Source of the DNA: a virus
Strand: one strand, 5' to 3'
IMG/VR virus record: IMGVR_UViG_3300045988_119157
Coordinates: 1-31,970 of that record
Length of the DNA: 31,970 nt
The notes under the pieces are model-generated. The model had not been told where the DNA came from. It saw only the letters and a list, made by a program, of their open reading frames with translations, and did no database searches. A program made the translations under genes and the position numbers. Shown piece by piece: positions 1,776 through 31,970 of the stretch. How positions within the stretch are numbered: position 1 is the first letter of the stretch; each line of letters starts with the position of its first letter.

Positions 1776-1989
1776 CGGGCAAGGACAGCTGTCGCTTGAT
1801 TTCGGCGAACCGCCGATGCCGACACCCGGCGCGTGCGAGTTCGAACAGAAGACGTTCAACACCAAATCGTGCTGCCTGTTCAGGGGTCGGGAGATCTGGA
1901 CCAACTGCCGCAAATGGGAGCACTGCATTTGGGACGGATGGCACCAGCACGGGCAACCATGCGCCGAATGCGACGAGGAAGATTGTTAG
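1762..1989 (+). CDS. Small Cys-rich protein (75 aa), putative zinc-binding
   Basis: The ORF has ATGA coupling with the upstream gene. It contains eight or more Cys in CxxC-like spacing (CEFEQ..SCCLF..CRKWEHC..CAEC). It ends just before the RBS of the next gene. Confidence 0.4.
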   Translation: MTRTSGQGQLSLDFGEPPMPTPGACEFEQKTFNTKSCCLFRGREIWTNCRKWEHCIWDGWHQHGQPCAECDEEDC

Positions 1990-1999
1990 GAGGTGTGAC

Positions 2000-2455
2000 A
2001 TGGCGAGCAGGGAGGAATTGACCGCAGCTCGCGAGCCAATGGCCTTCTTTAGGCACGATTCCAACGCATCGCACGATGACAAGTGCCAGAGGTTGATTCT
2101 TCGCCGTGGATACGACGGATACGGGCGATGGTGGATTCTCTGCGAATACCTCGCATCGTCCACTGGGCACCATGTGTCTTTCCAGACGGACGAGGACGCG
2201 AAGATTCTCGCGCGGGTACTCGGGTTCGGAACCGGCGGCGCTTTCGATGACCTCATGGCCATGGAGGACTGCAAAGCATTCGTGTCCGACCTAATCGATC
2301 TGAAGCTCTTGGAATGCGATGAAAACGGCTACTTGCAGAGCGTTCGAATGCAGAAAAACGCGCTCTATTTCGGTCAGCAGCGCGCGAACGGTCGCAAGGG
2401 CGGCAGACCTCGAAAGAACAAGGCTTCTGAAGATTCCGCAGCTAGGGAGGTGTAA
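2000..2455 (+). CDS. DUF4373 (Lin1244/Lin1753-like N-terminal) domain protein, a putative phage replisome organizer or replication initiator
   Basis: The RBS is AGGAGG. The N-terminus (AFFRHDSNASHDDKCQRLILRRGYDGYGRWWILCEYL) matches the DUF4373 signature YFxHDSNAxxDxKI...YGxxGYGxYW. It is followed by an AT-rich repeat region. Confidence 0.65.
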   Translation: MASREELTAAREPMAFFRHDSNASHDDKCQRLILRRGYDGYGRWWILCEYLASSTGHHVSFQTDEDAKILARVLGFGTGGAFDDLMAMEDCKAFVSDLIDLKLLECDENGYLQSVRMQKNALYFGQQRANGRKGGRPRKNKASEDSAAREV

Positions 2456-2760
2456 AAGCATGTTCCTAAAACCAAGTACAAAACCGTTGGTTTTTGGTTC
2501 GGTTAACCCGTCAGCAAAAGGTGGCAAAAGCCTAAAACAAAACAAAACAAAACAAGAAGGAGTGGGTTTGGTTCTTAAAACCAAACCAAACCCACTCACT
2601 TGCTTGTCAGTCAACCTAACAAGCAAGGTTATTTCTCTTGCTTCTTCTCTTTGCAGGCACTTCCGAAACGCTCGAATCTGCGATTTCAGACCTCTGTTTT
2701 CAACATGTTTTCCACAGAGTTTTCCACATCGCGTGTTTGGGGGTGATCGTAGATGCCTTG
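2456..2760. promoter_or_regulatory. AT-rich iteron/hairpin region, a putative origin of replication (alternatively attP arm sites)
   Basis: The region contains (AAAAC)x4 at about 2534-2555. A 13-bp perfect inverted repeat AGTGGGTTTGGTT/AACCAAACCCACT lies at 2561-2573/2584-2596. A second inverted repeat, CTTGCTTGT...ACAAGCAAG, lies at 2599-2627. A tandem GTTTTCCACA motif lies at 2707-2729. GC is far below the genome mean and no convincing ORF is present. Confidence 0.35.
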
Positions 2761-2918
2761 GGGAACTTATCACGGGCGCGTAGAGATACGACGATGACCA
2801 ATCTGCGGCAAGGAGCGACCGATTGATTGGTTCGTCCGAAATCATCAAGAGCACGAATCATGCTGGCTCTGCCGTGAGACGGGCAGGGACGGCAGCAAAC
2901 CAAGAAGGGAGAAGGTCG

Positions 2919-3167
2919 ATGGGCTTATCGGATGACAAGATCGATTACCGCAAACAGTGCATCGCTGAAATCAGGTGTGAGGCCGCGTCGGTGCTCGAAG
3001 CCCTATCGAAGCCGAACATTGACATTCGGAATGTGCTCGACCTGAGCAGTGACGTTAACGATTCGGCGTTGAGAATGCACACGATGCTTTCAGCAGCATT
3101 CATTTCAGACTTGTTCGAGGCGATTCATTCAGATGCTAAATTCTACCGTTTCAGAAATCATCACTGA
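2919..3167 (+). CDS. Hypothetical protein (82 aa) with lower GC than its neighbours
   Basis: The ATG is preceded by GGGAGAAGG. Its composition is locally AT-richer. Confidence 0.4.
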   Translation: MGLSDDKIDYRKQCIAEIRCEAASVLEALSKPNIDIRNVLDLSSDVNDSALRMHTMLSAAFISDLFEAIHSDAKFYRFRNHH

Positions 3168-3179
3168 AGGAGTTTGAAG

Positions 3180-3470
3180 ATGATCGAGGTTAAACAGGCA
3201 AAGACGCTTCAGGAGCTTGCAGGGTGTCTCGCTGGCAATCCCGTTGAACATCCCGACCATTACGCCGGAGACGGCAAGATCGAATGCATGGATGCCATGC
3301 GCTCGATGATGAGCGGCGATACCTACGCCCTCCCGGCTATCGCCGCGCACTGGTGGGCCGCAGCGTTCAAGTACATCTGGCGTTGGCGTCGCAAGGGCGG
3401 GGTTCAGGATCTGCGCAAGTGCCGCCAGTGCATCGACTACCTCATTGCCGAGATTGAGGGCGAGCAGTGA
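3180..3470 (+). CDS. DUF3310 family phage protein
   Basis: The motifs PDHYAGDGKIECMDAMRSM and FKYIWRWRRKGGVQDLRKCRQCIDYLI match the DUF3310 consensus (PxHY..G.IE.ID.i...FkYiwRa..Kng.eDL.Ka..Yl.). The RBS is GAAGGAG and the ATG is at 3180. Confidence 0.7.
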   Translation: MIEVKQAKTLQELAGCLAGNPVEHPDHYAGDGKIECMDAMRSMMSGDTYALPAIAAHWWAAAFKYIWRWRRKGGVQDLRKCRQCIDYLIAEIEGEQ

Positions 3471-3610
3471 GACGCCACCGCATCGCAATCGCCATCGTCA
3501 CCACCATCCTGACTGCGTCGGCGGCGTTCTTCGCCTATTGGTGGGTTTACCGGCAGCTCTGCGCGGTCGCTTTACTTCTCATCTTCCTGGCACTGGCCGC
3601 AATGTCTTAA
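3467..3610 (+). CDS. Putative tiny membrane protein (47 aa, GTG start)
   Basis: The start overlaps the upstream stop as GTGA. The product is entirely hydrophobic (IAIAIVTTILTASAAFFAYWWVY...LLLIFLALAA). It is below the ORF-track length cutoff. Confidence 0.25.
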   Translation: MRRHRIAIAIVTTILTASAAFFAYWWVYRQLCAVALLLIFLALAAMS

Positions 3611-3621
3611 GGGGGCAACCA

Positions 3622-3810
3622 ATGGATAACAAAGACCTGATCGACGGATTGGCCGTCATGATCCTTGCGAGCATCGTCATATTGGCCGTGACGGTAAGCC
3701 TCGCTGTCGGCTTTTTCTTCGGAATCGGCTACGGCTTTTTGGTGCTGTCGGCGTTCGTGTTTTCGGCAATCGTCGGGATGCTCTCCATGTTCAAGAGGGC
3801 GAGCAAGTAG
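3622..3810 (+). CDS. Small membrane protein (62 aa, 2 TM)
   Basis: The ATG is preceded by AAGGGGG. The product has two hydrophobic helices. It ends 1 nt before the integrase start. Confidence 0.45.
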   Translation: MDNKDLIDGLAVMILASIVILAVTVSLAVGFFFGIGYGFLVLSAFVFSAIVGMLSMFKRASK

Positions 3811-3811
3811 C

Positions 3812-4996
3812 ATGAGCGTCACGGTCAAAAGGGGCAGGGACGGCGTTTTCGAATGCCGCCTGTATCTCGGTCGCGGCGTTGACGGCAAGGCGATCCGCCC
3901 CTATAAGCGATTCCCCAACGCCGCAACGGAGTCCGAGGCTCTGGAACTCGCGGAGACGTGGGCGGCAAACCTCACGGCAAACGGAGAGGTTAAGAGCGCC
4001 CGCCTGGTTGACCTTCTTGCCGATTACATTCAGCTCAGGGAGCGGAACGGCGCAAGTCCCAACAGCATCAAGAGCTATCGACTGTTCACGCACTACGTTG
4101 CGAGGTTTCTGAGGACTGCCAACGCTCGTGATCTCAGCGTCATGGACTTCAACCGGTTCGAGCAGGCGTTGCTCATGCCCAAATCTGACGGAGGCCAGGG
4201 TCTTTGCAGGAACAGCGTCATCAATGTCCACAACTTCCTGAGAGGCGCTTACAACCACTTTGTCGATGCCGGAATATGCGACGCCAACCCGATTGTCTAC
4301 GTGTCGAAGCCGTCACCCGAGCGGCATGAGGCATGCGCCCTGACCGAATGGGACTTCGAGGACTTCAACGCGCGGCTCGAATCGGCGATGGGCGTCGAGG
4401 GAACCAGCATGAGCGAATACCGCCGTGCGGTCTATGCGTTCGCCGCATGGCTCGCGCTCGTGACCGGGATGCGCGTCGGTGAGGTGTGCGCGGAGCAGAG
4501 GGCCGATGTGAAGCGCTATCAGATGTTCCTACACGTCGGCGGCAATGTCATCGAGAGCGCCGGGGCGAAGCCGTATCGGCGTAACGTCACGAAAGGCCGC
4601 AAATGCCGAAACATCGCCGTGACCGCAGAGGATCTGGGCGTTATCGATTCGTTCGTGAGGCTGCAGAACGCGGTTCTCGGGCGTCTTGATGTCGATTCCC
4701 CTCTGGTGACGCTCGATGGCTCCTATATGCGCCCAACGACGATTTCACGCGCTTTCAGCCGTATCCGCGATTCGTGCGGCCTTCCGAAGGAGATCACGTT
4801 TCACAGCCTGCGGCACACGCATGCCTCCTGGCTCATCGCGAACGGGTGCGACCTTAAGACGCTCTCAGAGCGGATGGGCCACGCTGACGAGGCAACGACG
4901 CTCCGGATCTACGGGCACCTGATGCCCGGTCGCGATGCCGTGGCGGCGCAGCTCTTCAGCGAGGCTAAGAAGCGCGCAACTGGCATCTACGCATAA
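3812..4996 (+). CDS. int: Tyrosine recombinase / phage integrase with an N-terminal arm-binding (AP2-like) domain
   Basis: The C-terminal catalytic signature is HSLRHTHASWLIANGCDLKTLSERMGHADEATTLRIYGHL (R..H..R..Y). The N-terminus has an arm-type DNA-binding domain. Confidence 0.95.
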   Translation: MSVTVKRGRDGVFECRLYLGRGVDGKAIRPYKRFPNAATESEALELAETWAANLTANGEVKSARLVDLLADYIQLRERNGASPNSIKSYRLFTHYVARFLRTANARDLSVMDFNRFEQALLMPKSDGGQGLCRNSVINVHNFLRGAYNHFVDAGICDANPIVYVSKPSPERHEACALTEWDFEDFNARLESAMGVEGTSMSEYRRAVYAFAAWLALVTGMRVGEVCAEQRADVKRYQMFLHVGGNVIESAGAKPYRRNVTKGRKCRNIAVTAEDLGVIDSFVRLQNAVLGRLDVDSPLVTLDGSYMRPTTISRAFSRIRDSCGLPKEITFHSLRHTHASWLIANGCDLKTLSERMGHADEATTLRIYGHLMPGRDAVAAQLFSEAKKRATGIYA

Positions 4997-5016
4997 GGAG
5001 AGGGAGGTAATTGTTC

Positions 5017-5322
5017 ATGTTTGGATCTGATTTTATGTGCCCATACTGCGGTGCGGGTCACAAAGAGTACGACTTCGATTTCTGCGAAGAAGGCAGTTAT
5101 TCCGTCGAATGCGCGAATTGCGGGAGATCGTTCGACGTGAACGTGTCTTACACCCCGTTGATTTCTGTTGATGTGCCCACAGAGCTGGAAAGCTGTTCAG
5201 GGCGATGCTGGGCTTGGAGCATCGGCTGCTGTCGCTACGGCGAGAAGTTCATGCTTTCCGATGGGCATGTTACTTGCGATGTGCCCGATTGTCCGCTTGG
5301 GCACCCAATGGAATCCGAATAG
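5017..5322 (+). CDS. Cys-rich zinc-ribbon protein (101 aa)
   Basis: The RBS GGAGG lies 9 nt upstream of the ATG. Multiple CxxC pairs are present (CPYCG, CANCG, and others). Confidence 0.5.
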   Translation: MFGSDFMCPYCGAGHKEYDFDFCEEGSYSVECANCGRSFDVNVSYTPLISVDVPTELESCSGRCWAWSIGCCRYGEKFMLSDGHVTCDVPDCPLGHPMESE

Positions 5323-5470
5323 TGGTGTGCCAAAAGTGAACCAATCGTGCTTTTCCGGGCATCGCGGCAACCGAGGAAAAACGCGAGATAAACCGCCGCT
5401 TTCGGTACGGGTTGAAACTGTCCGCGACAGATAAGAAGTAATTATCAGGCAATCACGAAAAGGGGGTGCC

Positions 5471-5746
5471 ATGAACCACGATGAAGCTCGGGAACTGGTC
5501 TCGAATCTCGATGTGAGCGACAAGCTTAAGGCGTCAATGATGCGGACTTTCGACGCGTTGCAGGATCGATGGGACAAAGATCGCGATGCGGCAGCGACCG
5601 CGTACCAGATTGACATTCCCGCGCAATCAATTCGGATCTGCGGAGAGCTTCAGGCGAGGCACGCTCTGGACATACTGAAGAGCCTGAAGCTCACCGGAAC
5701 TTATCGAGTTATGAAAGGTGGAGTAAGTGAAGGAAATCGAGGTTAA
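5471..5746 (+). CDS. Hypothetical protein (91 aa)
   Basis: The RBS is AAAAGGGGG. No domain is recognised. Confidence 0.5.
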   Translation: MNHDEARELVSNLDVSDKLKASMMRTFDALQDRWDKDRDAAATAYQIDIPAQSIRICGELQARHALDILKSLKLTGTYRVMKGGVSEGNRG

Positions 5747-5897
5747 CGATGACGAGTGGATGCGGATCAAGCACAAGCTTATGACCTCCATCGTCGAGGA
5801 AGCGCTGAGCGACTACACGGCACCGGTTCGCATCGTGCACGGATGCGAGTACGTGACTTTCGAAAGGGGCAATGATGATTCCGCATCTGACCACTGA
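5727..5897 (+). CDS. Possible small ORF (56 aa, GTG start)
   Basis: AGGTGGAG precedes the GTG. The ORF overlaps both neighbours and is speculative. Confidence 0.2.
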   Translation: MKEIEVNDDEWMRIKHKLMTSIVEEALSDYTAPVRIVHGCEYVTFERGNDDSASDH

Positions 5898-6189
5898 GCA
5901 ACGCCGCGAGTATCTTGAGAAGGCTTCGAAAGTTCGCAGGGAGCGGGCGATTGTTCGTAATGACCTGAAGTCTGGTCTGATGACCTTTGGCCAGGTGCTA
6001 AAGCTCGCCGACGCCGACTGCCAAGCAGTGTCCAACATGCGCGTAAAGCAGGTTATCAACTCCATGCCTGGGTACGGCCATGCAAAGACTCAGCAACTTA
6101 TGAGGGCTTTGCAAATTGCAGATGGTCGGCGCATCAAGGGTCTTGGCGTTCGCCAGCGTGCCGCCCTGTTGGAGGTCCTTGGATGCTGA
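5872..6189 (+). CDS. mIHF/sIHF-family integration host factor-like nucleoid protein (actinobacterial type)
   Basis: The ORF has a strong similarity pattern to mycobacterial mIHF. Key matches are L(T)TEQRREYLEKA..RRERA, FGQVLK, and RIKGLGVRQRAALLE compared with mIHF RLRGLGDRQRKALLE. Confidence 0.8.
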   Translation: MMIPHLTTEQRREYLEKASKVRRERAIVRNDLKSGLMTFGQVLKLADADCQAVSNMRVKQVINSMPGYGHAKTQQLMRALQIADGRRIKGLGVRQRAALLEVLGC

Positions 6190-6353
6190 CCGCCATTTTC
6201 TACCTGTGCGGCGGCTTGCTGTCGCTGCTCGCTCTTTTCGGCTCCGATGCTGAAAAAGACATGATGCTGCTTGTCTTGGCGCAATTGATATTCATTTCTG
6301 CGAACGTCATCGAGATCAAAGGGATTTTAAGGGAGCGGATTTATGAGCATTAA
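6183..6353 (+). CDS. Possible small membrane protein (56 aa)
   Basis: The start overlaps the upstream stop. The N-terminus is hydrophobic (MLTAIFYLCGGLLSLLALFG). The ORF is speculative. Confidence 0.25.
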   Translation: MLTAIFYLCGGLLSLLALFGSDAEKDMMLLVLAQLIFISANVIEIKGILRERIYEH

Positions 6354-6765
6354 CCACGTCATTCTGTCCGGCAATCTCGGAGCCAATTCCGAACTGAGGT
6401 ACACGAAGAGCGGTACGCCCATCCTGACTTTCTCTCTTGCCGTCAATGACCGCGTGCCTAACGGCGATGGGACTTGGGGCGATTACACGAATTGGCTCGA
6501 TTGCTCGATGTTCGGCAAGCGTGCCGAAGCGCTCGCGCCGTACCTCACCAAGGGCGTGAAGGTAACCGTTTCCGGAAGGGTGAGGACGCACACCTACCAG
6601 AAGGACGGGCAGAACTTGAAGCGTTGGGAGATTCGCGTTGAGAACGTCGAGCTGATGCAGGTGAAGCGCGAGCAGCAGAACGCATATGCCCAACCGGTGG
6701 AACAGGCGCAGCCGATTGCGACGTCACCGGCGCCAGACGTGTACGACGAGGATATTCCGTTTTAA
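6343..6765 (+). CDS. ssb: Single-stranded DNA-binding protein
   Basis: The OB-fold pattern is present (NHVILSGNLGANSELRYT..G..ILTFSLAVN). The acidic C-terminal tail ends DEDIPF. Confidence 0.9.
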   Translation: MSINHVILSGNLGANSELRYTKSGTPILTFSLAVNDRVPNGDGTWGDYTNWLDCSMFGKRAEALAPYLTKGVKVTVSGRVRTHTYQKDGQNLKRWEIRVENVELMQVKREQQNAYAQPVEQAQPIATSPAPDVYDEDIPF

Positions 6766-6774
6766 GGAGCAAGG

Positions 6775-7053
6775 ATGTTGTTGGAACTTTTCAAGCGAAG
6801 CAAAGAGGTGGAAGAGCTGCGCGAGCTGCTTGCCCAAGCCGATGATGTGACCCGCTCAAACCCGCGAGACGAACAGGGGCGGACGCTCGCCCTCGATGAC
6901 GTTGTTCTCTACAACGGCGCTCGCTACCGCGTCGTTGCCATGAGCCATCGCGGAAAGGTGTCAATCCGCCACGTCTCGATGCATGGCGGCTGCGGGGCGC
7001 GTTGGGTTCCTGCGGACCGCGTTTCGTTTCTCACAAGTCAGGAGGTCTTCTAA
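6775..7053 (+). CDS. Hypothetical protein (92 aa)
   Basis: The RBS is AAGGAG. No domain is recognised. Confidence 0.5.
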   Translation: MLLELFKRSKEVEELRELLAQADDVTRSNPRDEQGRTLALDDVVLYNGARYRVVAMSHRGKVSIRHVSMHGGCGARWVPADRVSFLTSQEVF

Positions 7054-7490
7054 TGTTCGGACGAAAGCTCAACGTTAAGGTTGCCGAAGGCATGGAGGTG
7101 CCTCGTTACGCCCACGAAGGTGATGCCGGTCTCGATCTTCGCATCACGGAAACCGTGACGCTCGAACCGATGCAGCGCTGTATCGTCGGCTGCGGCCTGT
7201 CAATCGAGATTCCCAGCGGTTGTGTCGGACTGCTTTTCCCGCGCTCCGGCCTTGCATCCAAGCAGGGCATCACGCTCGCCCACAGCGTCGGCGTCATCGA
7301 CAGCGGCTATCGCGGCGAGGTGTGCGCTCCGCTCATCAACCTCAGCTATGAGACCGTGACCATCGAGGCGGGCACGCGCGTGTGCCAGCTTGTCGTGATG
7401 CCTTATGTTCCGTGCGAGCTTGTCCCGGTCGAAGAGCTGAGCGGCACCGAGCGCGGCGCCGACGGCTTCGGCAGCACAGGCATCGAGTAG
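7053..7490 (+). CDS. dut: dUTP diphosphatase (dUTPase)
   Basis: The dUTPase motifs AGLDL, GVIDSGYRGE and RGADGFGSTG are present. The RBS is AGGAGG. Confidence 0.9.
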   Translation: MFGRKLNVKVAEGMEVPRYAHEGDAGLDLRITETVTLEPMQRCIVGCGLSIEIPSGCVGLLFPRSGLASKQGITLAHSVGVIDSGYRGEVCAPLINLSYETVTIEAGTRVCQLVVMPYVPCELVPVEELSGTERGADGFGSTGIE

Positions 7491-7949
7491 GTGAAACGCA
7501 TGAAGGCAAAGGAGTATTTCGAGGGAATCCGCGCCGAGGTGGTGAAGACCGAACAGGCGCGGGAAATGCTGGAGTGCATGAGGGCTAAGGAGGGCGCGAA
7601 GGCGCAGAGCTACCAGCCTTCGGGCGGCGGTGGATTCTGCACAGACGCTTCACTCGCCATCATCCAGCGCATCGACTTTGAGAAGCGGTTGGAACAACGC
7701 ATCACCGACGCTCGGAAGCAGATAGACGAAGCTTGCGAGGTGTTATACGGTATCGACGGGCGCGGCGGTCTGGCGAAGCTCAAAGGTGCAAGATACGCTG
7801 ATGCCATCTGCATGGGCTATCTCCAAGCGCAGTCGTGGACTGAGATTGCAGAGATCATGCAAAGCTCTGTGCGGTGGTGCCATTCTCTTTGTGATACCGG
7901 GTTTGCTTACATTGATCGGGTCGGATTCGCATTTGTTAAAAACGCCTGA
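7491..7949 (+). CDS. Putative late-gene transcriptional regulator with a sigma70 region-4-like HTH
   Basis: The C-terminus (ICMGYLQAQSWTEIAEIMQSSVRWCHSL) resembles a sigma-70 region 4 / ArpU-RinA-type HTH. It lies immediately upstream of the packaging module. The start may be the GTG at 7491 or the ATG at 7500. Confidence 0.4.
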   Translation: MKRMKAKEYFEGIRAEVVKTEQAREMLECMRAKEGAKAQSYQPSGGGGFCTDASLAIIQRIDFEKRLEQRITDARKQIDEACEVLYGIDGRGGLAKLKGARYADAICMGYLQAQSWTEIAEIMQSSVRWCHSLCDTGFAYIDRVGFAFVKNA

Positions 7950-8047
7950 TAGGTTCTTTTCAGATTATTCATTCTGTCTTCCCCTATCATTCTTGTTCAC
8001 ACGGCATCATTCGTTGTGCTAAGATTCGATATGGTGAATTGTCATGA

Positions 8048-8088
8048 AAGGCCGTGCGGGGGAACCTGCGCGGCCTTCCTCATATCTG
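8048..8088 (+). terminator. Putative intrinsic terminator
   Basis: A GC-rich stem AAGGCCGTGCGGG / CCTGCGCGGCCTT with a GGAA loop is followed by TTCCTCATAT. Confidence 0.4.
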
Positions 8089-8154
8089 GACATATCAGAA
8101 CTTCGATATAGGAGTCATAAATTCAGATATAGAGTCTGACATTCCGATATACGC

Positions 8155-8242
8155 GGAGAGTTGGCAGAGCGGCTTAATGTATCCGGTTGCTAACCGGACG
8201 ATGCGCAGGCATCCGCAGGTTCGAATCCTGTGCTCTCCGCCA
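8155..8242 (+). tRNA. tRNA-Ser (anticodon GCT), type II tRNA with a long variable arm, phage-encoded
   Basis: A manual cloverleaf fits. Acceptor GGAGAGT pairs with GCTCTCC. D-loop GAGCGGCTTAA. Anticodon stem TCCGG/CCGGA with loop TTGCTAA. A 16-nt variable arm has a 5-bp stem. T-arm GCAGG-TTCGAAT-CCTGT. The discriminator is G and CCA is encoded. The sequence closely parallels E. coli tRNA-Ser. Confidence 0.85.
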
Positions 8243-8262
8243 TTTGACACAAGGGAGGCGCG

Positions 8263-8577
8263 ATGGCTAAGGACTTCAGTCGCGCCTTCTACCACAGCAC
8301 GGAATGGGAGCGGGCGCGTGACGTTGCGCTCACCAGAGACGCGCACCTATGCCAACACTGCCTGAAGCGCGGTGACATCACCCCGGCGGTCATGGTGCAT
8401 CACATCGTGGAGCTAAGCCCTTCGAACGTGAACGACCCTGACATTGCGACTAACCCTGATAACCTCGTGAGCCTGTGCGACCGATGCCACAAGCAAGTGC
8501 ATGGGTGGATCAGGCAGGGCGCGACACGTCAGGGCTTCGGCTTTGACAGTGACGGCAATCTTGTGCCGCTCGATTAG
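8263..8577 (+). CDS. HNH endonuclease (packaging-associated)
   Basis: A CxxC zinc finger is combined with the HNH motif (HHIVEL...NPDNLVSLCDRCHKQVH). The RBS is GGGAGG. The gene sits immediately upstream of the terminase genes. Confidence 0.85.
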   Translation: MAKDFSRAFYHSTEWERARDVALTRDAHLCQHCLKRGDITPAVMVHHIVELSPSNVNDPDIATNPDNLVSLCDRCHKQVHGWIRQGATRQGFGFDSDGNLVPLD

Positions 8578-8752
8578 CGGCACACAAACACAGCACAACG
8601 CAGACCAAGCGCAAAAGCGGGACACAAAACCGCAGCTAGACACGGCGGAATATCCCCCCATCCCAAAAACACAGGGTGGGTGGCAGGGGACCAACGCCGG
8701 GAGATAGTTTTATGCGCGTGGAAGGTTTTCGAAAGGGGGTGGTCTTGCGCTT

Positions 8753-9169
8753 ATGGCAAAAGTTGGTAATACTTCGGAGGTTTCCGCAAAAGTTGCAGCG
8801 AACAGCCCGCCGAGAGCGCCGAGGTCGAAGCAATCACGTATCGATAGCGAGCTTAAGAAGCTCCGCGAATTGACCAAGGACGCGATTCCCGATGAGAAGC
8901 GCAAGGCGATCATGCCCTTGCTCCCGAACCTCGCTTTCATGAAGGTCAAGCTCGATGATGCACGCGCCGACCTGTTGTATGAGGATATTTTCACCGAGTA
9001 CGACAACGGTGGCGGCCAATCCGGCTTGCGTGAGCATCCGGGATTCTCCGCATACAACAAGCTGTTCACGACCTTCAGCAGATCGGTCAAGCAGCTTGCA
9101 GACATGATGCCCAACGGAACCGCCGCCGCCGACGCGCTGATAGACTTCATCAATGAGACGAGGTGTTAG
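8753..9169 (+). CDS. Terminase small subunit (P27-like)
   Basis: The assignment rests on position between HNH and TerL, size (138 aa) and a P27-family-like sequence pattern. Confidence 0.55.
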   Translation: MAKVGNTSEVSAKVAANSPPRAPRSKQSRIDSELKKLRELTKDAIPDEKRKAIMPLLPNLAFMKVKLDDARADLLYEDIFTEYDNGGGQSGLREHPGFSAYNKLFTTFSRSVKQLADMMPNGTAAADALIDFINETRC

Positions 9170-10889
9170 GCGTTACAAGGGTGCCGACGGGTCGTGCGAA
9201 CGCGCGATCAGGGAGTATTTCGGCGGAATACTCGGCGGCGATATAACCGCCTGCGCCAAGATGCGCAAAGTTGCCGCGCACATCCTGCGCGACATGGACA
9301 ACACCGACCCGCTTTACCCTTACCACTTCCGAGAGGAATACGCGCAGAAGCACGTTCAGTTCATCGAGCGATTCTGCCGTCTGCCGTCTGGACGCTTGGG
9401 TCACGATTTCGAGCTTGAGCTTTTCCAGCGGGCGATCCTCTCGGTTGTCTTCGGGTTCGTTGACGCCGACGGCACGCGCCAGTACCGCGAGGTGCTTTGG
9501 ATCATGGGGCGCAAGAACGGCAAGACTGCTTTGGCATCGGCCATCGAGCTTGACCTTCTCATCAACGACGATGAGGGCGCACCGGAGGTCTACAACGTCG
9601 CTACCGCGCACGATCAGGCGGCGAAGGGCTTCAACAACGCTTGGCGTATGGTCATGACGAGTCCCGCGCTCTCGCGCCATGTGCGAAAACGCGTGTCCGA
9701 CCTTTATTGTGACCTGAACATGGGGAGCATCAAGGCGCTTAGCGCGAACACGAACCACCTGGACGGCCTCGACATCTCGGGCGCGATTGTGGACGAGCTT
9801 GCGGCCATGAAGAACCGCGACCTCTACGACCTGACGATTCAGGGCACGTCGGCGCGCCGACAGCCGCTGGTTTTGGAGATCACCACAAACGGATTCGTCC
9901 GAAACGGCATCTTCGACGCCCAGTACGAGTACGCCTGCAAATGGCTCGACGGCCAAGCGACGGGTGACAAGGCAGAGCGATTCATCGCCTTCATCTTCGA
10001 GCTTGACGAGCGCGAGGAATGGCAGGACGAGAACTGCTGGATTAAGGCGAATCCGGGCTTGGGAACCATCAAGTCGCTCGCCGCCCTGCGTCAGAACGTC
10101 TCGAAGGCCAAAGATGACCCGACTTTCCTGCCGACCCTGCTTGTAAAGGACTTCAACCTCATCGAGAACCAGAGCCAAGCTTGGCTCACGTGGGACGAGA
10201 TACACAACGATGCGACGTTCGACCCGAGTGACGGCACATTCACTTACGCCGTGCTGGGCGTCGATGCTGCTGACACAACCGACCTGACGGCGGCGTGTTT
10301 GCTCATGCAGCGACCCGGTGACCCGAACATCTACGCGATGCACATGGCGTGGATTCCCCAGCGAGCCTTGGAGCAGGCCGAGCGAGAGGGTCGGCGAGGC
10401 GGGCGCGATGGAGTCCCATACGATGCGTGGATCGCGCGAGGACTCATGAGGACGTGCGACACTCCGATCATGGACAAGCGCGACGTGCTCGACTGGGTTG
10501 CCGAGGTCCAGAGCGAATACGGCATCTACGCCGTGGCGTGCGGCTACGACCCGTGGCACATGCGCGACGTGCCGACGCAGGAAGCCTATGAGGATTACTT
10601 CGGCGCGGACAACCTGCAGAAGATCATCCAGGGCGCTCAGACTTTGAGTATGCCGATGAAGGAGCTTCGCGCCCTCTATAAGGAGGGGCGGATTGTCGAT
10701 AACGGAAACCCCATCGCTGAGTGGTGCCGCTCGAACGTCGCGATCCGCACCGACGTGAACGGCAACATCCAGCCGGACAAGAAGAACCAAGACCCGCGCA
10801 ACCGAATAGACGCTTGGGCGGCCGAATGCGACGCGTTCATTGCGATGAAGAATATTGCCGATGACTACGCGGCGATGATTGGAGGTTAA
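9153..10889 (+). CDS. Terminase large subunit
   Basis: A Walker A-like motif (GRKNGKT) is present. The Terminase_1-type ATPase plus nuclease architecture fits. The gene is 578 aa and sits upstream of the portal gene. Confidence 0.9.
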   Translation: MRRGVRRYKGADGSCERAIREYFGGILGGDITACAKMRKVAAHILRDMDNTDPLYPYHFREEYAQKHVQFIERFCRLPSGRLGHDFELELFQRAILSVVFGFVDADGTRQYREVLWIMGRKNGKTALASAIELDLLINDDEGAPEVYNVATAHDQAAKGFNNAWRMVMTSPALSRHVRKRVSDLYCDLNMGSIKALSANTNHLDGLDISGAIVDELAAMKNRDLYDLTIQGTSARRQPLVLEITTNGFVRNGIFDAQYEYACKWLDGQATGDKAERFIAFIFELDEREEWQDENCWIKANPGLGTIKSLAALRQNVSKAKDDPTFLPTLLVKDFNLIENQSQAWLTWDEIHNDATFDPSDGTFTYAVLGVDAADTTDLTAACLLMQRPGDPNIYAMHMAWIPQRALEQAEREGRRGGRDGVPYDAWIARGLMRTCDTPIMDKRDVLDWVAEVQSEYGIYAVACGYDPWHMRDVPTQEAYEDYFGADNLQKIIQGAQTLSMPMKELRALYKEGRIVDNGNPIAEWCRSNVAIRTDVNGNIQPDKKNQDPRNRIDAWAAECDAFIAMKNIADDYAAMIGG

Positions 10890-23907: not shown

Positions 23908-24810
23908 ATGGCAGATGTCTCAGTCCTCACATTCAACGGCGCGCCGCGCAACGTCAAGGACGTCACCGCGCGGAACACGGCAAACGCCGCGACCACCGCT
24001 CAGGAATACGACCGACAGCAATTGACCGGAACCTATAAGGGGCGCTCCATCGAGTCAGTCTTCGCCGCCGAGATCGGCAGCGCAAACGTCTGGACGTGGC
24101 TCCAAAAGCGGGTGAAGGCAGCCAACTTCACGGGGCTTCGCATCGGCGATTACATCGACGTGCAGCTGAAGGCCGGTGTCAACGTCCCCTCCCAGACCGT
24201 CAGGTACCGCATCGCGGCCATCGACCCGTATTACCAGTGCGGGGACACACCGAAGGGCCACCATCTAGCGATGGTCCCGTCCGCCCCGGTGTCCGTCACC
24301 GGTGACAAGGCCGTGAACGGATCTTATATCAAGTGGCGCGACACGAACGACAACAACGGCATCGCAGATGAGAAGCACCCGTATCTGTGCTCGAAGCTGC
24401 ATGAGTGGGAGATCGGCGATTTCCTGCCGTCCCTCCCGACCGAGTGTCAAGCAGCCATCATGCCGCAACGCGTCTTGCTCAATGAGCGCTACGCGTCGAG
24501 CGGGAAGCTCACCGATGACAGCGGTTGGTCTTGGGTCGATCTGGGGAAGGTATGGTCTCTTTCCGAAATCGAGGTCTACGGGTTCCAAGCATGGAGCAAG
24601 ACTGGTTACAGCATCGGATTCGATTGCCATTTCCCGATTTTCGAAGACACGGCATCTCGAATCTTGGGAACTCGCGTCGCGTGGTGGCTCCGCTCCGTCA
24701 TGGGCGGTTCGTCCTCCAACGTGTGCAATGTCGGCAGCAACGGCATTGCCGGCGACAACGCCGCGACGCATGACTGGGTTCGCCCGTTCCCGTGCTTCCT
24801 CGTAGGCTGA
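23908..24810 (+). CDS. DGR target protein (putative receptor-binding protein) with a C-terminal variable region
   Basis: The last roughly 45 codons match the downstream TR except at TR adenines. Its position before avd fits the Mtd-like arrangement. Confidence 0.75.
   Translation: MADVSVLTFNGAPRNVKDVTARNTANAATTAQEYDRQQLTGTYKGRSIESVFAAEIGSANVWTWLQKRVKAANFTGLRIGDYIDVQLKAGVNVPSQTVRYRIAAIDPYYQCGDTPKGHHLAMVPSAPVSVTGDKAVNGSYIKWRDTNDNNGIADEKHPYLCSKLHEWEIGDFLPSLPTECQAAIMPQRVLLNERYASSGKLTDDSGWSWVDLGKVWSLSEIEVYGFQAWSKTGYSIGFDCHFPIFEDTASRILGTRVAWWLRSVMGGSSSNVCNVGSNGIAGDNAATHDWVRPFPCFLVG
24672..24799 (+). repeat. DGR variable region (VR)
   Basis: The 128-bp VR aligns to TR 25336-25463 with 11 mismatches at TR adenines. 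The A-to-G changes fall at 24679, 24733, 24734, 24737, 24751, 24752 and 24754. The A-to-C changes fall at 24680, 24769 and 24795. The A-to-T change falls at 24746. Only about 2 non-A mismatches occur, near the ends. Confidence 0.85.
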
Positions 24811-24837
24811 TTTATCAGCCGTACGCAACACTGAACC

Positions 24838-24860
24838 GGCGCATGCCTTGCGCATGCGCC
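24838..24860 (+). other. GC-rich hairpin downstream of the VR (DGR homing hairpin candidate)
   Basis: GGCGCATGC-cttgc-GCATGCGCC forms a 9-bp perfect stem. It lies 28 nt after the target stop and is absent after the TR. Confidence 0.5.
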
Positions 24861-24895
24861 ATCAGGTCGAGACGGCTTAGCAAGGAGATGGTCGT

Positions 24896-25306
24896 TTGAG
24901 TGGTGTATATGCCCGAAACAGGCATCTGAGTGCCCATAAGTATTTCACGCTTGCATTGGAGATAAGGGCAGAGATCACCAAGAAGGTGACAACGAAGCAG
25001 CTGCCGAAGTCGTACAGGTTCGTCTTCGCCGTCCCTATGGCCGAGACAGCCAGAAGCTTGGTCATGAATCTCGTAAAGGCGGATGCGTTCTACCCGAACA
25101 CCGCGCGAAACGTCGATGAGCGCAAGAGATTTATGACGCTCGCTATCGCCGACTGCAACCAACTGCTCCAAGACCTGCAATGCCTGAAGTCTCTCAACTC
25201 GAACATAAGCCTGTCGTGGTTCGAGACGCTTATTCAGGACGTCGATGATGACATAAAGCTCATCAAGGGCGCTCGGTCTGGCGTGAAACTGATAGGAAAG
25301 GGGTAA
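24896..25306 (+). CDS. avd: DGR accessory variability determinant (Avd-like four-helix-bundle protein)
   Basis: The product is a 136-aa basic helical protein. The TTG start lies 9 nt after AAGGAG. It sits between the target and TR as in canonical DGRs. The pattern resembles Avd / IVS-protein family. Confidence 0.6.
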   Translation: MSGVYARNRHLSAHKYFTLALEIRAEITKKVTTKQLPKSYRFVFAVPMAETARSLVMNLVKADAFYPNTARNVDERKRFMTLAIADCNQLLQDLQCLKSLNSNISLSWFETLIQDVDDDIKLIKGARSGVKLIGKG

Positions 25307-25335
25307 AATGAATAAGTGTTGCCCCTTGGAAATCT

Positions 25336-25463
25336 TCGCGTCAATTGGTGGCTCCGCTCCGTCATGGGCGGTTCGTCCTCCAACGTGTGCAATGTCAACA
25401 ACAACGGCAATGCCAACAACAACGCCGCGACGAATGACTGGGTTCGCCCGTTCCCGTGATTCC
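25336..25463 (+). repeat. DGR template repeat (TR)
   Basis: The TR is nearly identical to the VR. It is AAC/AAT-codon-rich (AAC AAC AAC GGC AAT GCC AAC AAC AAC) where the VR differs. Confidence 0.85.
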
Positions 25464-25650
25464 CAAGACCTGCCAGACCGCGCAGACCGCAGCTCTGAGC
25501 GCCGTGCATTTGAGGAAGGAAGGGGCAACCATCGGGCGCGCGCCCGTAAATTTGCACCCCGAGACGGTTGCCGTTCGCTTCTTGCATGGCGCGGGATTTG
25601 GCACCTGCCCGCGTTTCATGGTCATCCGTCAAGCGGCTTTCGGGTGCCGT

Positions 25651-26784
25651 ATGAAGCCGTTCGGGGTGCCTCCAATGAACTCCGATGAGCGCCGAGCGGC
25701 GCGCCGAGCACGGCGCGATAACAAAAGGGCCGCAAATCGCTCGGAGCGGATAGAGGGGTGCACGCTCGAATCCATCGCAGATCTCGACAACCTATACCAG
25801 TCGGCGGTCGACGCCTCACGTGGCGTTAGTTGGAAATCGAGCGTCCAGAGGTACATGCTGAGGGTCATGCCGAACATCATGCGCGCACGAAAAGACCTCC
25901 TATCCGGTAAGGACTTCAAGCGCGGATTCATCGAGTTCGACATATTCGAGCGCGGAAAGCTCAGGCACACATGCTCTGTCCATTTCTCAGAGCGAGTCAT
26001 ACAGAAATCTATCAGCAGGCACGCGTTAGCACCGGCGATATGGCCTACGCTGACCGAAGGGTGCGCCGCGAACATAAAGGGGCGCGGCACTGAATATGCC
26101 GTCAGGCGATTAAAGCGCCAACTCGTAAACCATCACAAGAGGCACGGTGAGCGCGGGTACATCCTTCAGGTCGACTTCGCGAACTACTTCGGCAACATCG
26201 ACCACGGAGCTTGCAAGCGCCTTATCGACCGAGCACTTGACGACGATCGGGTTAAATCGGTCGTATTCGACCAGATTGACGCGCACGGGACTCGCGGCCT
26301 TGGTCTCGGCAGCGAGCCAAACCAAGTGCTCGCCGTAGCACTGCCGTCACCAATCGACCACCTCATGCTGTCCACGCCCGGAATCCTCGCAAGTGGCCGC
26401 TATATGGATGACAGCTATTGCATCGCGCTTGAGAAAAACGTTCTGCATGACGCGCTCGAAAGAATCGAATCACTATGCGACGAATTCGGGATTGTCATCA
26501 ACCGGAAGAAGACGAGGATCGTTAAATTGTCTCGCGGATTCGTCTTCCTCAAGAAGAGGTTTTATTTCGGCGACGGCGGCAAGGTAGTCGTGAGGCCATG
26601 CCGAAGCTCCATCACGCGTCAACGCAGGAAGTTGAAGAAGCAGGCGGCGCTCGTCGGTCGCGGCATGATGACCAAGGAACAGGTAAACCAATCCTATCAA
26701 TCGTGGCGCGGCGGCATGAAGCGGCTCGATGCGCACGACACAATACTGCGCATGGTCGCGCTATATAAGGAGCTTTTCGGATGA
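25651..26784 (+). CDS. DGR reverse transcriptase
   Basis: RT motifs are present (LQVDFANYFGNIDH and the YMDD box GRYMDDSYCIA). The ORF is open from 25456 (GTG overlapping the TR end). Candidate ATG starts are at 25618, 25651 and 25675. Confidence 0.85.
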   Translation: MKPFGVPPMNSDERRAARRARRDNKRAANRSERIEGCTLESIADLDNLYQSAVDASRGVSWKSSVQRYMLRVMPNIMRARKDLLSGKDFKRGFIEFDIFERGKLRHTCSVHFSERVIQKSISRHALAPAIWPTLTEGCAANIKGRGTEYAVRRLKRQLVNHHKRHGERGYILQVDFANYFGNIDHGACKRLIDRALDDDRVKSVVFDQIDAHGTRGLGLGSEPNQVLAVALPSPIDHLMLSTPGILASGRYMDDSYCIALEKNVLHDALERIESLCDEFGIVINRKKTRIVKLSRGFVFLKKRFYFGDGGKVVVRPCRSSITRQRRKLKKQAALVGRGMMTKEQVNQSYQSWRGGMKRLDAHDTILRMVALYKELFG

Positions 26785-30307: not shown

Positions 30308-30937
30308 CTATTTTGAGGAATGTTGGTTATTGTTTTCCAGCAATCCGACAATCACGAACCAACTGTTAGTTGCCTGAACAATGCAGGTGTCGAGCTGTAT
30401 TGCATGATTGTCTCGTTCAGAGAACTCACGGGAGTTCGCCGTTTCTCTCATCAGCTCCACCATAAGAGAATTAGTCGAACACCTTTGGTAGCAAGGGTGT
30501 TCGGCTTTTTTCTTTGTCGGGTTAAAGTCATCCGGCAGATCATCGAACATGAAGTAAACGGATATGTCCTTGCCGTCGATGTCCACGAATCGAACCCACT
30601 CGTTGAGGATTTCCAAGGGCGTCGTGTCATTTGCAAGGCTGTCGAGCCACAGCAACACGTCATCGACGCTCACCTCGCACGATTCCGATTTCTCGATGGC
30701 GCACAGCCGGGCTTCAAGCTCTGATTTCTGGCGGTTCAGCTCTTCAATGCGCTCCTTGCCGCCGGGAGGCGCGATACCGTCCTCTATCGCATGCCAGATG
30801 CGCTCAAACGTCGTTTCGATGCGCCGTATCTCCTTCTTGATGAAGTAGCTCTCAGGCTTTTCGTCGCTCCCCTGCTCCGCTTCGTACCCGGCGAGCGTTT
30901 CGGCGATGCGGGCGCGGTTAAGCGCTCTGTTCTTCAC
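30308..30937 (-). CDS. Hypothetical 210-aa protein (lysogeny-linked accessory gene) with a coiled-coil and a possible DUF4368-like C-terminus
   Basis: The start is GTG at 30937 or TTG at 30955. The ORF is AT-richer. The segment LEILNEWVRFVDIDGKDISVYFMFDD weakly resembles the C-terminal tail of large serine recombinases. No catalytic domain is present. Confidence 0.5.
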   Translation of the reverse strand: MKNRALNRARIAETLAGYEAEQGSDEKPESYFIKKEIRRIETTFERIWHAIEDGIAPPGGKERIEELNRQKSELEARLCAIEKSESCEVSVDDVLLWLDSLANDTTPLEILNEWVRFVDIDGKDISVYFMFDDLPDDFNPTKKKAEHPCYQRCSTNSLMVELMRETANSREFSERDNHAIQLDTCIVQATNSWFVIVGLLENNNQHSSK

Positions 30938-30943
30938 CTTTGC

Positions 30944-30990
30944 CCCGTGCGCCAACCGCCAAGAAGCCGCACGGGGTTTCTTTTTTATTT
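30944..30990 (+). terminator. Terminator-like hairpin plus T-run, oriented for + strand transcription
   Basis: The stem CCCCGTGCG / CGCACGGGG has a 15-nt loop and is followed by TTTCTTTTTTATTT. It lies between two - strand genes, in the 5' leader of the 215-aa gene. Confidence 0.45.
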
Positions 30991-31916: not shown

Positions 31917-31970
31917 ATCTTTCCACATGGGGAAAGATACGACTTTCCTTGACATGGTCAAAGGAAAGTC
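31917..31970. repeat. Terminal direct repeat, right copy (identical to 1-54)
   Basis: The sequence shows an exact 54-bp identity with the window start. Confidence 0.8.

Follow-up and report, generated by a model that had tools for sequence, protein, structure and literature searches.

The 31,970-nt stretch of viral DNA analysed here, positions 1–31,970 of IMG/VR record IMGVR_UViG_3300045988_119157 (the window), encodes a full-length member of the actinobacterial-type integration host factor (IHF) family, the mIHF/sIHF proteins. The open reading frame (ORF) spans 5872–6189 on the plus strand (105 codons, with an ATG at 5872 and the stop at 6187–6189) and lies in the early operon of a temperate phage, close to the gene for the single-stranded-DNA-binding protein SSB, a linkage that recurs in other phage lineages. 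We regard it as somewhat more probable than not that the product has an accessory, DNA-architectural function in the replication/recombination module of the phage.

Family membership is established by profile and structure comparisons that agree with one another. The NCBIfam model NF041260 (‘integration host factor, actinobacterial type’) matches residues 3–103 over profile positions 2–101 of 102, with 105.2 bits against a cut-off of 60 (E = 2.2e-30), and Pfam H2TH_5 (PF22525) matches with 65.6 bits against a cut-off of 27. The only solved structures that match by sequence are M. tuberculosis mIHF (PDB 6TOB; E = 1.9e-19, residues 2–104) and S. coelicolor sIHF (PDB 4ITQ/6BEK; E = 2.2e-17, residues 1–101). 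An AlphaFold2 model computed with 16 homologues as input has a mean pLDDT of 90.8 and contains the family fold, in which a long N-terminal helix (residues 8–34) is followed by an H2TH-containing core (helices 39–47, 51–54, 58–64, 70–79 and 93–103). In Foldseek searches this model superposes on the sIHF–DNA structures with TM-scores of 0.82 (6BEK_A, rmsd 1.2 Å) and 0.80 (4ITQ_A), the overall rmsd being 1.2–1.3 Å for 90–92 residues, and on 6TOB with a TM-score of 0.74; the next matches (S13 and Topo VI-B) involve the H2TH part alone, with E > 0.1. An E. coli-type IHF/HU protein of the HU fold was not indicated by either search, since H2TH_5 is the sole Pfam match and no structures beyond sIHF/mIHF and H2TH domains were retrieved. 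A sequence-only reading of this DNA had named the mIHF/sIHF family and suggested a profile and structure comparison; the comparison yields a significant profile match, and the assignment stands.

The elements used by the family to contact DNA are retained. In sIHF, these are turn two within the H2TH motif, plus an 11-residue basic lid between helices α4 and α5 (PMC3627587), and the corresponding sIHF segments, PGVG and SRRVRGLGSNQ, align with PGYG (66–69) and GRRIKGLGVRQ (85–95) of the window protein. Among 18 phage and host sequences, with those of M. tuberculosis and Streptomyces included in the alignment, P66, R87, G92 and Q95 are invariant and G67, G69, G90 and L91 nearly so. The protein is basic, with a predicted isoelectric point of 10.5, and its N-terminal helix carries a motif, LT.EQR..L.KA...R..RA, that is common to phage and host copies. 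The ratio of nonsynonymous to synonymous substitution rates is 0.08–0.39 for 14 pairs of relatives at 67–98% amino-acid identity (on viral contigs, in prophage-like contexts or in related assemblies), which indicates purifying selection on the gene.

Adjacent ATG codons occur at 5872 and 5875. Because a purine-rich, Shine-Dalgarno-like run, GAAAGGGG, ends at 5869, the spacing to the second ATG is the more usual one; the nearest relatives found by protein search are 104 residues long, and the gene call on the related contig L001 begins MIP. On this comparison the true start is probably 5875, giving a 104-residue protein. An antisense ORF at 5709–6065 (118 aa) was considered as a real gene and rejected, homology, structure and selection all being found in the plus-strand frame.

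The window has an exact 54-nt terminal redundancy (1–54 = 31917–31970) and is therefore a contig assembled as a circle, of about 31,916 bp. It represents a temperate siphophage of about 31.9 kb that encodes HNH, TerS, TerL, portal, S78 protease, capsid, tape-measure, GH25 lysin and repressor proteins; with terminase, portal, capsid, tail and lysin genes present, the mIHF gene is phage-borne, as had been claimed. The map starts with a minus-strand gene for a repressor-type helix-turn-helix protein, followed by an early operon encoding a Lin1244_N protein, DUF3310, a tyrosine recombinase, orf91, mIHF, orf56, SSB, orf92, dUTPase and a PHROG-36 regulator-like protein. Next come tRNA-Ser, HNH, TerS, TerL, portal, S78 protease, capsid and tail genes, and then a diversity-generating retroelement (DGR), a C39-like peptidase and a GH25/LysM lysin. 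Six genes of the early operon bear on the discussion below.

1796–2455, plus strand: Lin1244_N-domain protein, candidate replication initiator (Pfam Lin1244_N, 37.9 bits; PHROG 2562 ‘replication initiation protein’, E = 1.5e-9).
3812–4996, plus strand: tyrosine recombinase (Pfam Phage_integrase, 72.5 bits; PHROG 1 ‘integrase’, 172 bits, residues 4–385).
5471–5746, plus strand: orf91, 91 aa, located after the recombinase and before mIHF (gene calls exist in L001, L004 and L015; tblastn matches in most lineage members).
6183–6353, plus strand: orf56, a small hydrophobic ORF of 56 aa (a 56-aa gene is present at the same position in L001).
6343–6765, plus strand: SSB (Pfam SSB, 96.9 bits; PHROG 44, 148 bits).
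7053–7490, plus strand: dUTPase, downstream in the early DNA-metabolism block (Pfam dUTPase, 117 bits).

The neighbours are those that the sequence-only reading had described, SSB and the tyrosine recombinase, with 876 bp between the recombinase stop codon and the mIHF start downstream of it. The stop codon of mIHF overlaps the orf56 start (ATGCTGA) and orf56 in turn overlaps the start of SSB, an arrangement that may reflect translational coupling of the three genes. orf56 has no family match and is an optional insert, absent from many relatives; orf91 has no match in Pfam or PHROG. A scan for promoters and terminators returned background levels. Just 3′ of the candidate initiator gene, the non-coding segment 2456–2600 is rich in AAACC/GGTTT and AAAAC repeats and is a candidate origin; weaker copies of the AAACC/GGTTT motif occur at 467–503 and 5377–5413, also in the early region.

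Relatives in host genomes, found by a scan of one genome per species, connect the phage to Coriobacteriaceae (Coriobacteriia, Actinomycetota). Proteins 99% identical to the window mIHF are encoded at prophage loci in metagenome-assembled genomes (MAGs) of two members of this family (L006 and L007), and the parts shared with the window are 95–99% identical in DNA sequence, which bears out the earlier placement of the host in Actinomycetota. The hosts have an mIHF of their own in a housekeeping context: pyrF-PRTase-mihF-gmk-rpoZ-coaBC-metK in L002, pyrF-mihF-gmk in L008 and in the Coriobacteriaceae MAG locus L010, mihF-gmk in L009, and pyrF-mihF-gmk-rpoZ in the PGAP annotation of Collinsella aerofaciens (L075), whose protein is 46% identical to that of the window. 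The window gene lacks this context and sits in a phage between the tyrosine recombinase and SSB. Identity to the window protein is 43–46% for the host copies, 45% for M. tuberculosis mIHF and 40% for Streptomyces sIHF. Since the host copies are no closer than M. tuberculosis mIHF and exceed sIHF only slightly, the phage gene is an old, diverged paralogue rather than a recent acquisition. Sequence and context together indicate a paralogue or xenologue, not the orthologue of housekeeping mihF. In a neighbour-joining tree of phage and host copies, the host copies group together; with so short a protein and a star-like tree, single and multiple capture are not separated.

The company kept by the gene was surveyed in relatives from several sources. 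A scan of IMG/VR with a single peptide pattern yielded 58 viral contigs, a sample biased toward relatives of the window, and neighbours were located by tblastn with a small query panel, by which distant SSBs or integrases could be missed. The mIHF proteins were clustered at 85% identity, leaving 23 clusters (mostly viral contigs, plus related assemblies) after removal of host-context copies and two reference proteins. In 16 of the 23 clusters an SSB gene is found no more than 412 bp from mIHF (gaps of 1 to 412 bp, often 1–30 bp), and in one more at 1.5 kb, so the adjacency to SSB asserted for the window extends well beyond it. Ten of these 16 clusters belong to the window's own lineage, with TerL identities of 84–99%; the other six have different phage layouts. 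The order is RusA-RecT-310 aa-mIHF-SSB in L012/13 (a prophage adjacent to proS, whose edge, 7 kb away, carries a tyrosine integrase) and RusA-RecT-310 aa-SSB-mIHF in L061/62. L011, L021/30 and L026 have mIHF-SSB-dUTPase, and L064–68 have mIHF-SSB-regulator-dUTPase. With three integrase queries, no homologue other than that of L012 was detected within 6–10 kb on either side in these six clusters. A tyrosine recombinase within 2.5 kb of mIHF was found only in the window's lineage and in its distant member L060 (TerL 74%).

Two observations on the surveyed contigs are recorded here. In L012, positions 1796–10697 encode SNIPE/T5orf172 nuclease-like and HATPase_c proteins between the integrase and an S24 repressor, a possible defence island. 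The large ‘viral’ contigs L059, L063, L070 and L072 resemble high-G+C actinomycete elements of uncertain nature, and a large protein of L063 resembles, by eye only, an FtsK/SpoIIIE-type translocase.

Allele comparisons suggest that mIHF travels with SSB rather than with the recombinase. In L042, orf91 (98%) and dUTPase (95%) are highly similar to those of the window and mIHF (51%) and SSB (61%) are not; divergence of these two genes amid conserved neighbours implies that both were replaced together. L016 and L017 combine a 98% identical mIHF with an 82% identical tyrosine recombinase, and in several genomes the recombinase allele stands at 46%, mIHF and SSB being unchanged. Identities correlate at r = 0.99 for mIHF and SSB and at r = 0.39 for mIHF and the tyrosine recombinase, values that rest on few recombination events and not on 42 independent points. 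As judged from these alleles, mIHF and SSB are exchanged as one cassette.

A role in phage replication/recombination is suggested by the placement of the gene with SSB, RecT/RusA, dUTPase and the candidate initiator, by the exchange of the SSB cassette, and by the effect of depleting the M. smegmatis protein (msIHF), which inhibits replication (PMC10028186). Family members can bend or bridge DNA, and sIHF alters topoisomerase-dependent topology (PMC3627587; PMC10028186). Phage mIHF would be made from the early operon, possibly in translational coupling with orf56 and SSB, and by homology would bind duplex DNA as a monomeric, basic, non-specific protein. It could then bend, bridge or topologically condition phage DNA, which may allow the replication initiator, SSB and the host replisome to assemble, with RecT-type recombinases taking part in other phages.

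Several points weigh against this role. No SSB was detectable near the gene in seven clusters (L059, L060, L063 and L070–L073), the 23 clusters are non-independent, with ten from one TerL lineage, and adjacency to SSB is correlative evidence. In the window's lineage the gene is also always 0.2–1 kb from the tyrosine recombinase (1.9 kb in L060), and the founding activity of the mIHF family is stimulation of a tyrosine integrase, that of L5. PMC10028186 reports that msIHF does not bind oriC specifically in vitro, so an origin-specific role has no precedent in the family.

The tyrosine recombinase thus requires separate consideration, and here the integrated relative L007, on a 173-kb MAG contig, is informative. 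A complete tmRNA gene (L007 1629–1992; Rfam RF00023, 151 bits) lies to the left of the phage-homologous DNA. Homology to the window begins within the last 8 nt of this gene, CTCCACCA, and the alignment diverges to the left of it. The junction adjoins a gene whose 495–496-aa product, a large serine recombinase, contains Resolvase, Recombinase and Zn_ribbon_recom domains; repressor genes lie next to this gene, and the junction is about 6 kb from the tyrosine recombinase. Given this canonical attL-int-repressor layout, the serine enzyme is the integrase in the L007 lysogen. L001, L004 and L015 also carry a large serine recombinase beside repressor modules. Two features of the window correspond to this region.

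30455–30462, plus strand: attP core CTCCACCA, the same 8 nt with which the host tmRNA gene ends at the junction of the L007 prophage.
30308–30955, minus strand: C-terminal remnant of the serine integrase, 98% identical to residues 330–486 of the 495-aa L007 protein.

The window lacks the equivalent of L007 2447–3456, and with it the catalytic, recombinase and zinc-ribbon domains of the serine integrase; by this comparison its circular genome probably cannot integrate by means of that enzyme. In the intact relative (L007 1629–3436), the 3′ end of the integrase ORF contains attP/attL, and the C-terminal tail of the integrase extends 49 aa past the core in the phage form and 13 aa, read antisense to tmRNA, in the prophage form. 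φC31-based vectors integrate normally in a ΔsIHF mutant (PMC3627587).

Against this background, the phage mIHF could be a dedicated architectural cofactor of the adjacent tyrosine recombinase, bending DNA in the synapse as host mIHF does for L5 Int at attP. The family was first recognized as the cofactor for integration of L5, forming an intasome with Int and attP (PMC3627587), and the order tyrosine recombinase, zero to two small ORFs, mIHF is kept throughout the TerL lineage and in L060. The recombinase is a full-length member of the phage-integrase family (the PHROG 1 match given above), motifs resembling the catalytic R..HxxR..H..Y are visible by eye in its translation, and with the serine integrase truncated it is the only intact recombinase of the window. 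Nevertheless we judge such a cofactor role unlikely. The L007 prophage has its junction at the tmRNA 3′ end, next to the serine integrase, and its tyrosine recombinase occupies a mid-prophage position, flanked by DUF3310 and orf91. In every relative, including L007, this enzyme is encoded in the middle of the early operon, co-oriented and packed between phage genes, as a second recombinase of phages whose prophage edge already holds a serine integrase. No contig among the relatives shows the genome opened beside it. The six other SSB-linked clusters hold mIHF beside SSB with, L012 apart, no nearby integrase homologue, and recombinase alleles (46–98% identical) are swapped independently of their neighbours and assort independently of mIHF alleles. 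Residues 1–80 of the recombinase have no Pfam arm-binding-domain match, and a repeat search near the gene found no repeated arm-type sites. The sole repeat family that touches the 5323–5470 gap (D3: 467, 2468 and 5377) is a weak AAACC/GGTTT motif of 65–76% identity, which looks more like origin- or terminator-type sequence than like arm sites. The tRNA-Ser(GCT) gene at 8155–8242 was considered as an attP for this enzyme and rejected, because orf152 and HNH remain adjacent in all relatives and the tRNA is missing from L004; the tRNA gene lies between the regulator-like orf152 and HNH in the window and is also present in L001, L006 and L007.

Serine integrases are not known to require a DNA-bending host factor, in keeping with the φC31 result. 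The comparative context does not favour stimulation of an L5-type integrase as the main role of the phage protein; a secondary role in assisting the tyrosine recombinase would be compatible with the replication reading. The sequence-only reading had offered a cofactor for ‘integration/excision or replication’; the L007 junction and the SSB linkage favour its replication half, and leave integration the less favoured of the two.

Other readings look away from the recombinase. The protein might be a host-directed nucleoid or transcription modulator that competes with, mimics or supplements host mIHF, perhaps through its N-terminal helix and partners such as TopA, with the result that host chromosome structure, replication and expression are reprogrammed or prophage silencing is conditioned, in the manner of the phage Lsr2/CgpS and H-NS homologues. 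The host family owns mihF (Collinsella aerofaciens; MAG locus L010), so that the phage copy fills no gap, and the N-terminal helix conserved between phage and host is the proposed protein-contact part (PMC3627587). Other actinobacterial nucleoid proteins have documented phage homologues (PMC7074111), and mIHF controls many genes and is essential in mycobacteria (PMC6155035 and PMC10028186). What makes a modulator quite improbable to us is the location of the gene, which belongs to an early lytic/replication operon running opposite to the repressor rather than to a lysogeny module or moron position, together with a tight and repeated coupling to SSB that such a function does not predict. A speculative variant, to which we give little credence, joins host targeting to the SSB linkage: mIHF and SSB would form a co-evolving two-protein cassette that recruits a host factor (e.g. 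topoisomerase I) or displaces host mIHF and so diverts the replication machinery to the phage. The phage mIHF is about 45% identical to every host copy examined, with the N-terminal helix kept. If true, the mIHF-SSB cassette would be a new route, by mimicry of a nucleoid protein, for Actinomycetota phages to seize host replication.

E. coli IHF acts in lambda packaging, and the phage protein might likewise aid DNA packaging by bending cos or pac DNA for HNH-TerS-TerL, as that factor does at lambda cosB. The gene is indeed 2–3 kb upstream of the HNH-TerS-TerL block in the window's lineage. In other lineages, however, many early genes separate it from the terminase (>7 kb in L012), it abuts neither TerS nor TerL in any relative, and no cos site was identified in the analysis; a packaging function is accordingly very improbable.

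Comparison with known systems places the window protein nearest to the mIHF of M. tuberculosis and M. smegmatis (Rv1388; 6TOB). The two share family, length, architecture and basic character, align end to end (2–104) with about 45% identity, and both conserve the PG.G turn and the RR.+GLG..Q lid. They differ in setting: mIHF is chromosomal and essential, in a pyrF-mihF-gmk-rpoZ context, whereas the window gene belongs to a phage, where it forms part of an early replication operon beside SSB. The predicted structure superposes on S. coelicolor sIHF (SCO1480; 4ITQ, 6BEK), with the same long N-terminal helix and H2TH core, at a lower sequence identity of 37–40%. sIHF acts in sporulation-associated chromosome condensation and segregation and in TopA-dependent topology (PMC3627587), a context that is absent in a Coriobacteriaceae phage.

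Phage-borne members of the same fold and family have been annotated before. These are PIS_028 of Saccharomonospora phage PIS 136 (‘integration host factor MihF’; JX006077) and metagenomic entries named ‘Integration host factor MIHF [Siphoviridae sp. ct...]’, the latter matching by structure in BFVD with TM-scores of 0.67–0.83. They are only 29–37% identical to the window protein. PIS_028 differs further in its length of 137 aa and in belonging to a 95-kb soil phage, where its neighbours are hypothetical and neither SSB nor integrase occurs in the 14 kb examined. Extra copies are also found on mobile replicons as plasmid mihF of Rhodococcus, Streptomyces and Tsukamurella, with 75 PLSDB records, mainly from Rhodococcus and Streptomyces; many are labelled by PGAP as ‘mihF: integration host factor, actinobacterial type’. 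Unlike the window gene, these are carried by large plasmids and not by phages, and some ‘plasmid’ records are probably pieces of chromosome, e.g. a 900-kb Collinsella record with pyrF-mihF-gmk. The earlier statement that mIHF is normally a host function thus holds in a softened form, as many plasmids of actinobacteria, and at least one isolated phage, carry annotated extra mihF genes.

More distant parallels are the CgpS/Lsr2 proteins of actinophages and the H-NS of phage EPV1, in which a mobile element likewise carries a diverged host nucleoid protein (PMC7074111). Those proteins have unrelated folds and are xenogeneic silencers that oligomerize on AT-rich DNA and have ties to lysogeny; members of the mIHF family, in contrast, are monomeric and non-specific, and here the link is to replication genes. 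With E. coli IHF/HU (lambda integration, cos bending, oriC) there is a functional analogy alone, that of a small basic DNA-bending accessory. There is no relation in sequence or structure, E. coli IHF being an HU-fold heterodimer with sequence-specific binding (PMC3627587).

Among deposited phage genomes the window and its mIHF are isolated. Megablast of 25 kb of the window against 50,697 such genomes gave no match, so this phage has no sequenced cultured relative among them. tblastn of the same set with the window protein (E ≤ 1e-3) and with M. tuberculosis mIHF (E ≤ 1e-2) also returned none; a family-consensus query against deposited phage genomes (INPHARED) gave PIS 136 as the sole match. 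Literature searches for phage-encoded or prophage mIHF found no dedicated study. The mIHF family itself is large, with 1,601 cluster representatives at 50% identity (E ≤ 1e-3). Its best-matching representative, P0022 (250 aa), has two stretches that match the 105-aa query and may be a tandemly duplicated or fused mIHF. PHROG 21723 (‘unknown function’) matches residues 2–101 of the window protein with E = 3e-9, and probably belongs, on this similarity, to the mIHF/sIHF family. With mihF copies already annotated on plasmids, in one isolated phage and in metagenomic entries, the window does not represent a new kind of system; what is modestly new is that uncultured gut phages of actinobacteria conserve a linkage of mIHF to SSB.

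mIHF/sIHF is an actinobacteria-specific chromatin protein, essential in mycobacteria, whose molecular job is poorly defined. The repeated occurrence of diverged copies in gut phages of Coriobacteriaceae type, kept by purifying selection and tied to SSB and recombination genes instead of integrases, points to a family function linked to replication and recombination, and the phage copies are a set of small, easily expressed variants with which that function could be tested. The gene is also a good host marker (Actinomycetota) for uncultured gut phages.

The DGR of the window is complete and spans 23908–26784. Its variable repeat (24672–24799) is situated at the 3′ end of a DUF6273 tail-fibre-like gene (23908–24810), and is followed by an Avd-like ORF (24896–25306) with a weak 23S_rRNA_IVP match. 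The template repeat (25336–25463) is 91% identical to the variable repeat, and beyond it lie an Rfam RT-2 RNA (25468–25689; 101.9 bits) and the reverse transcriptase ORF, which ends at 26784.

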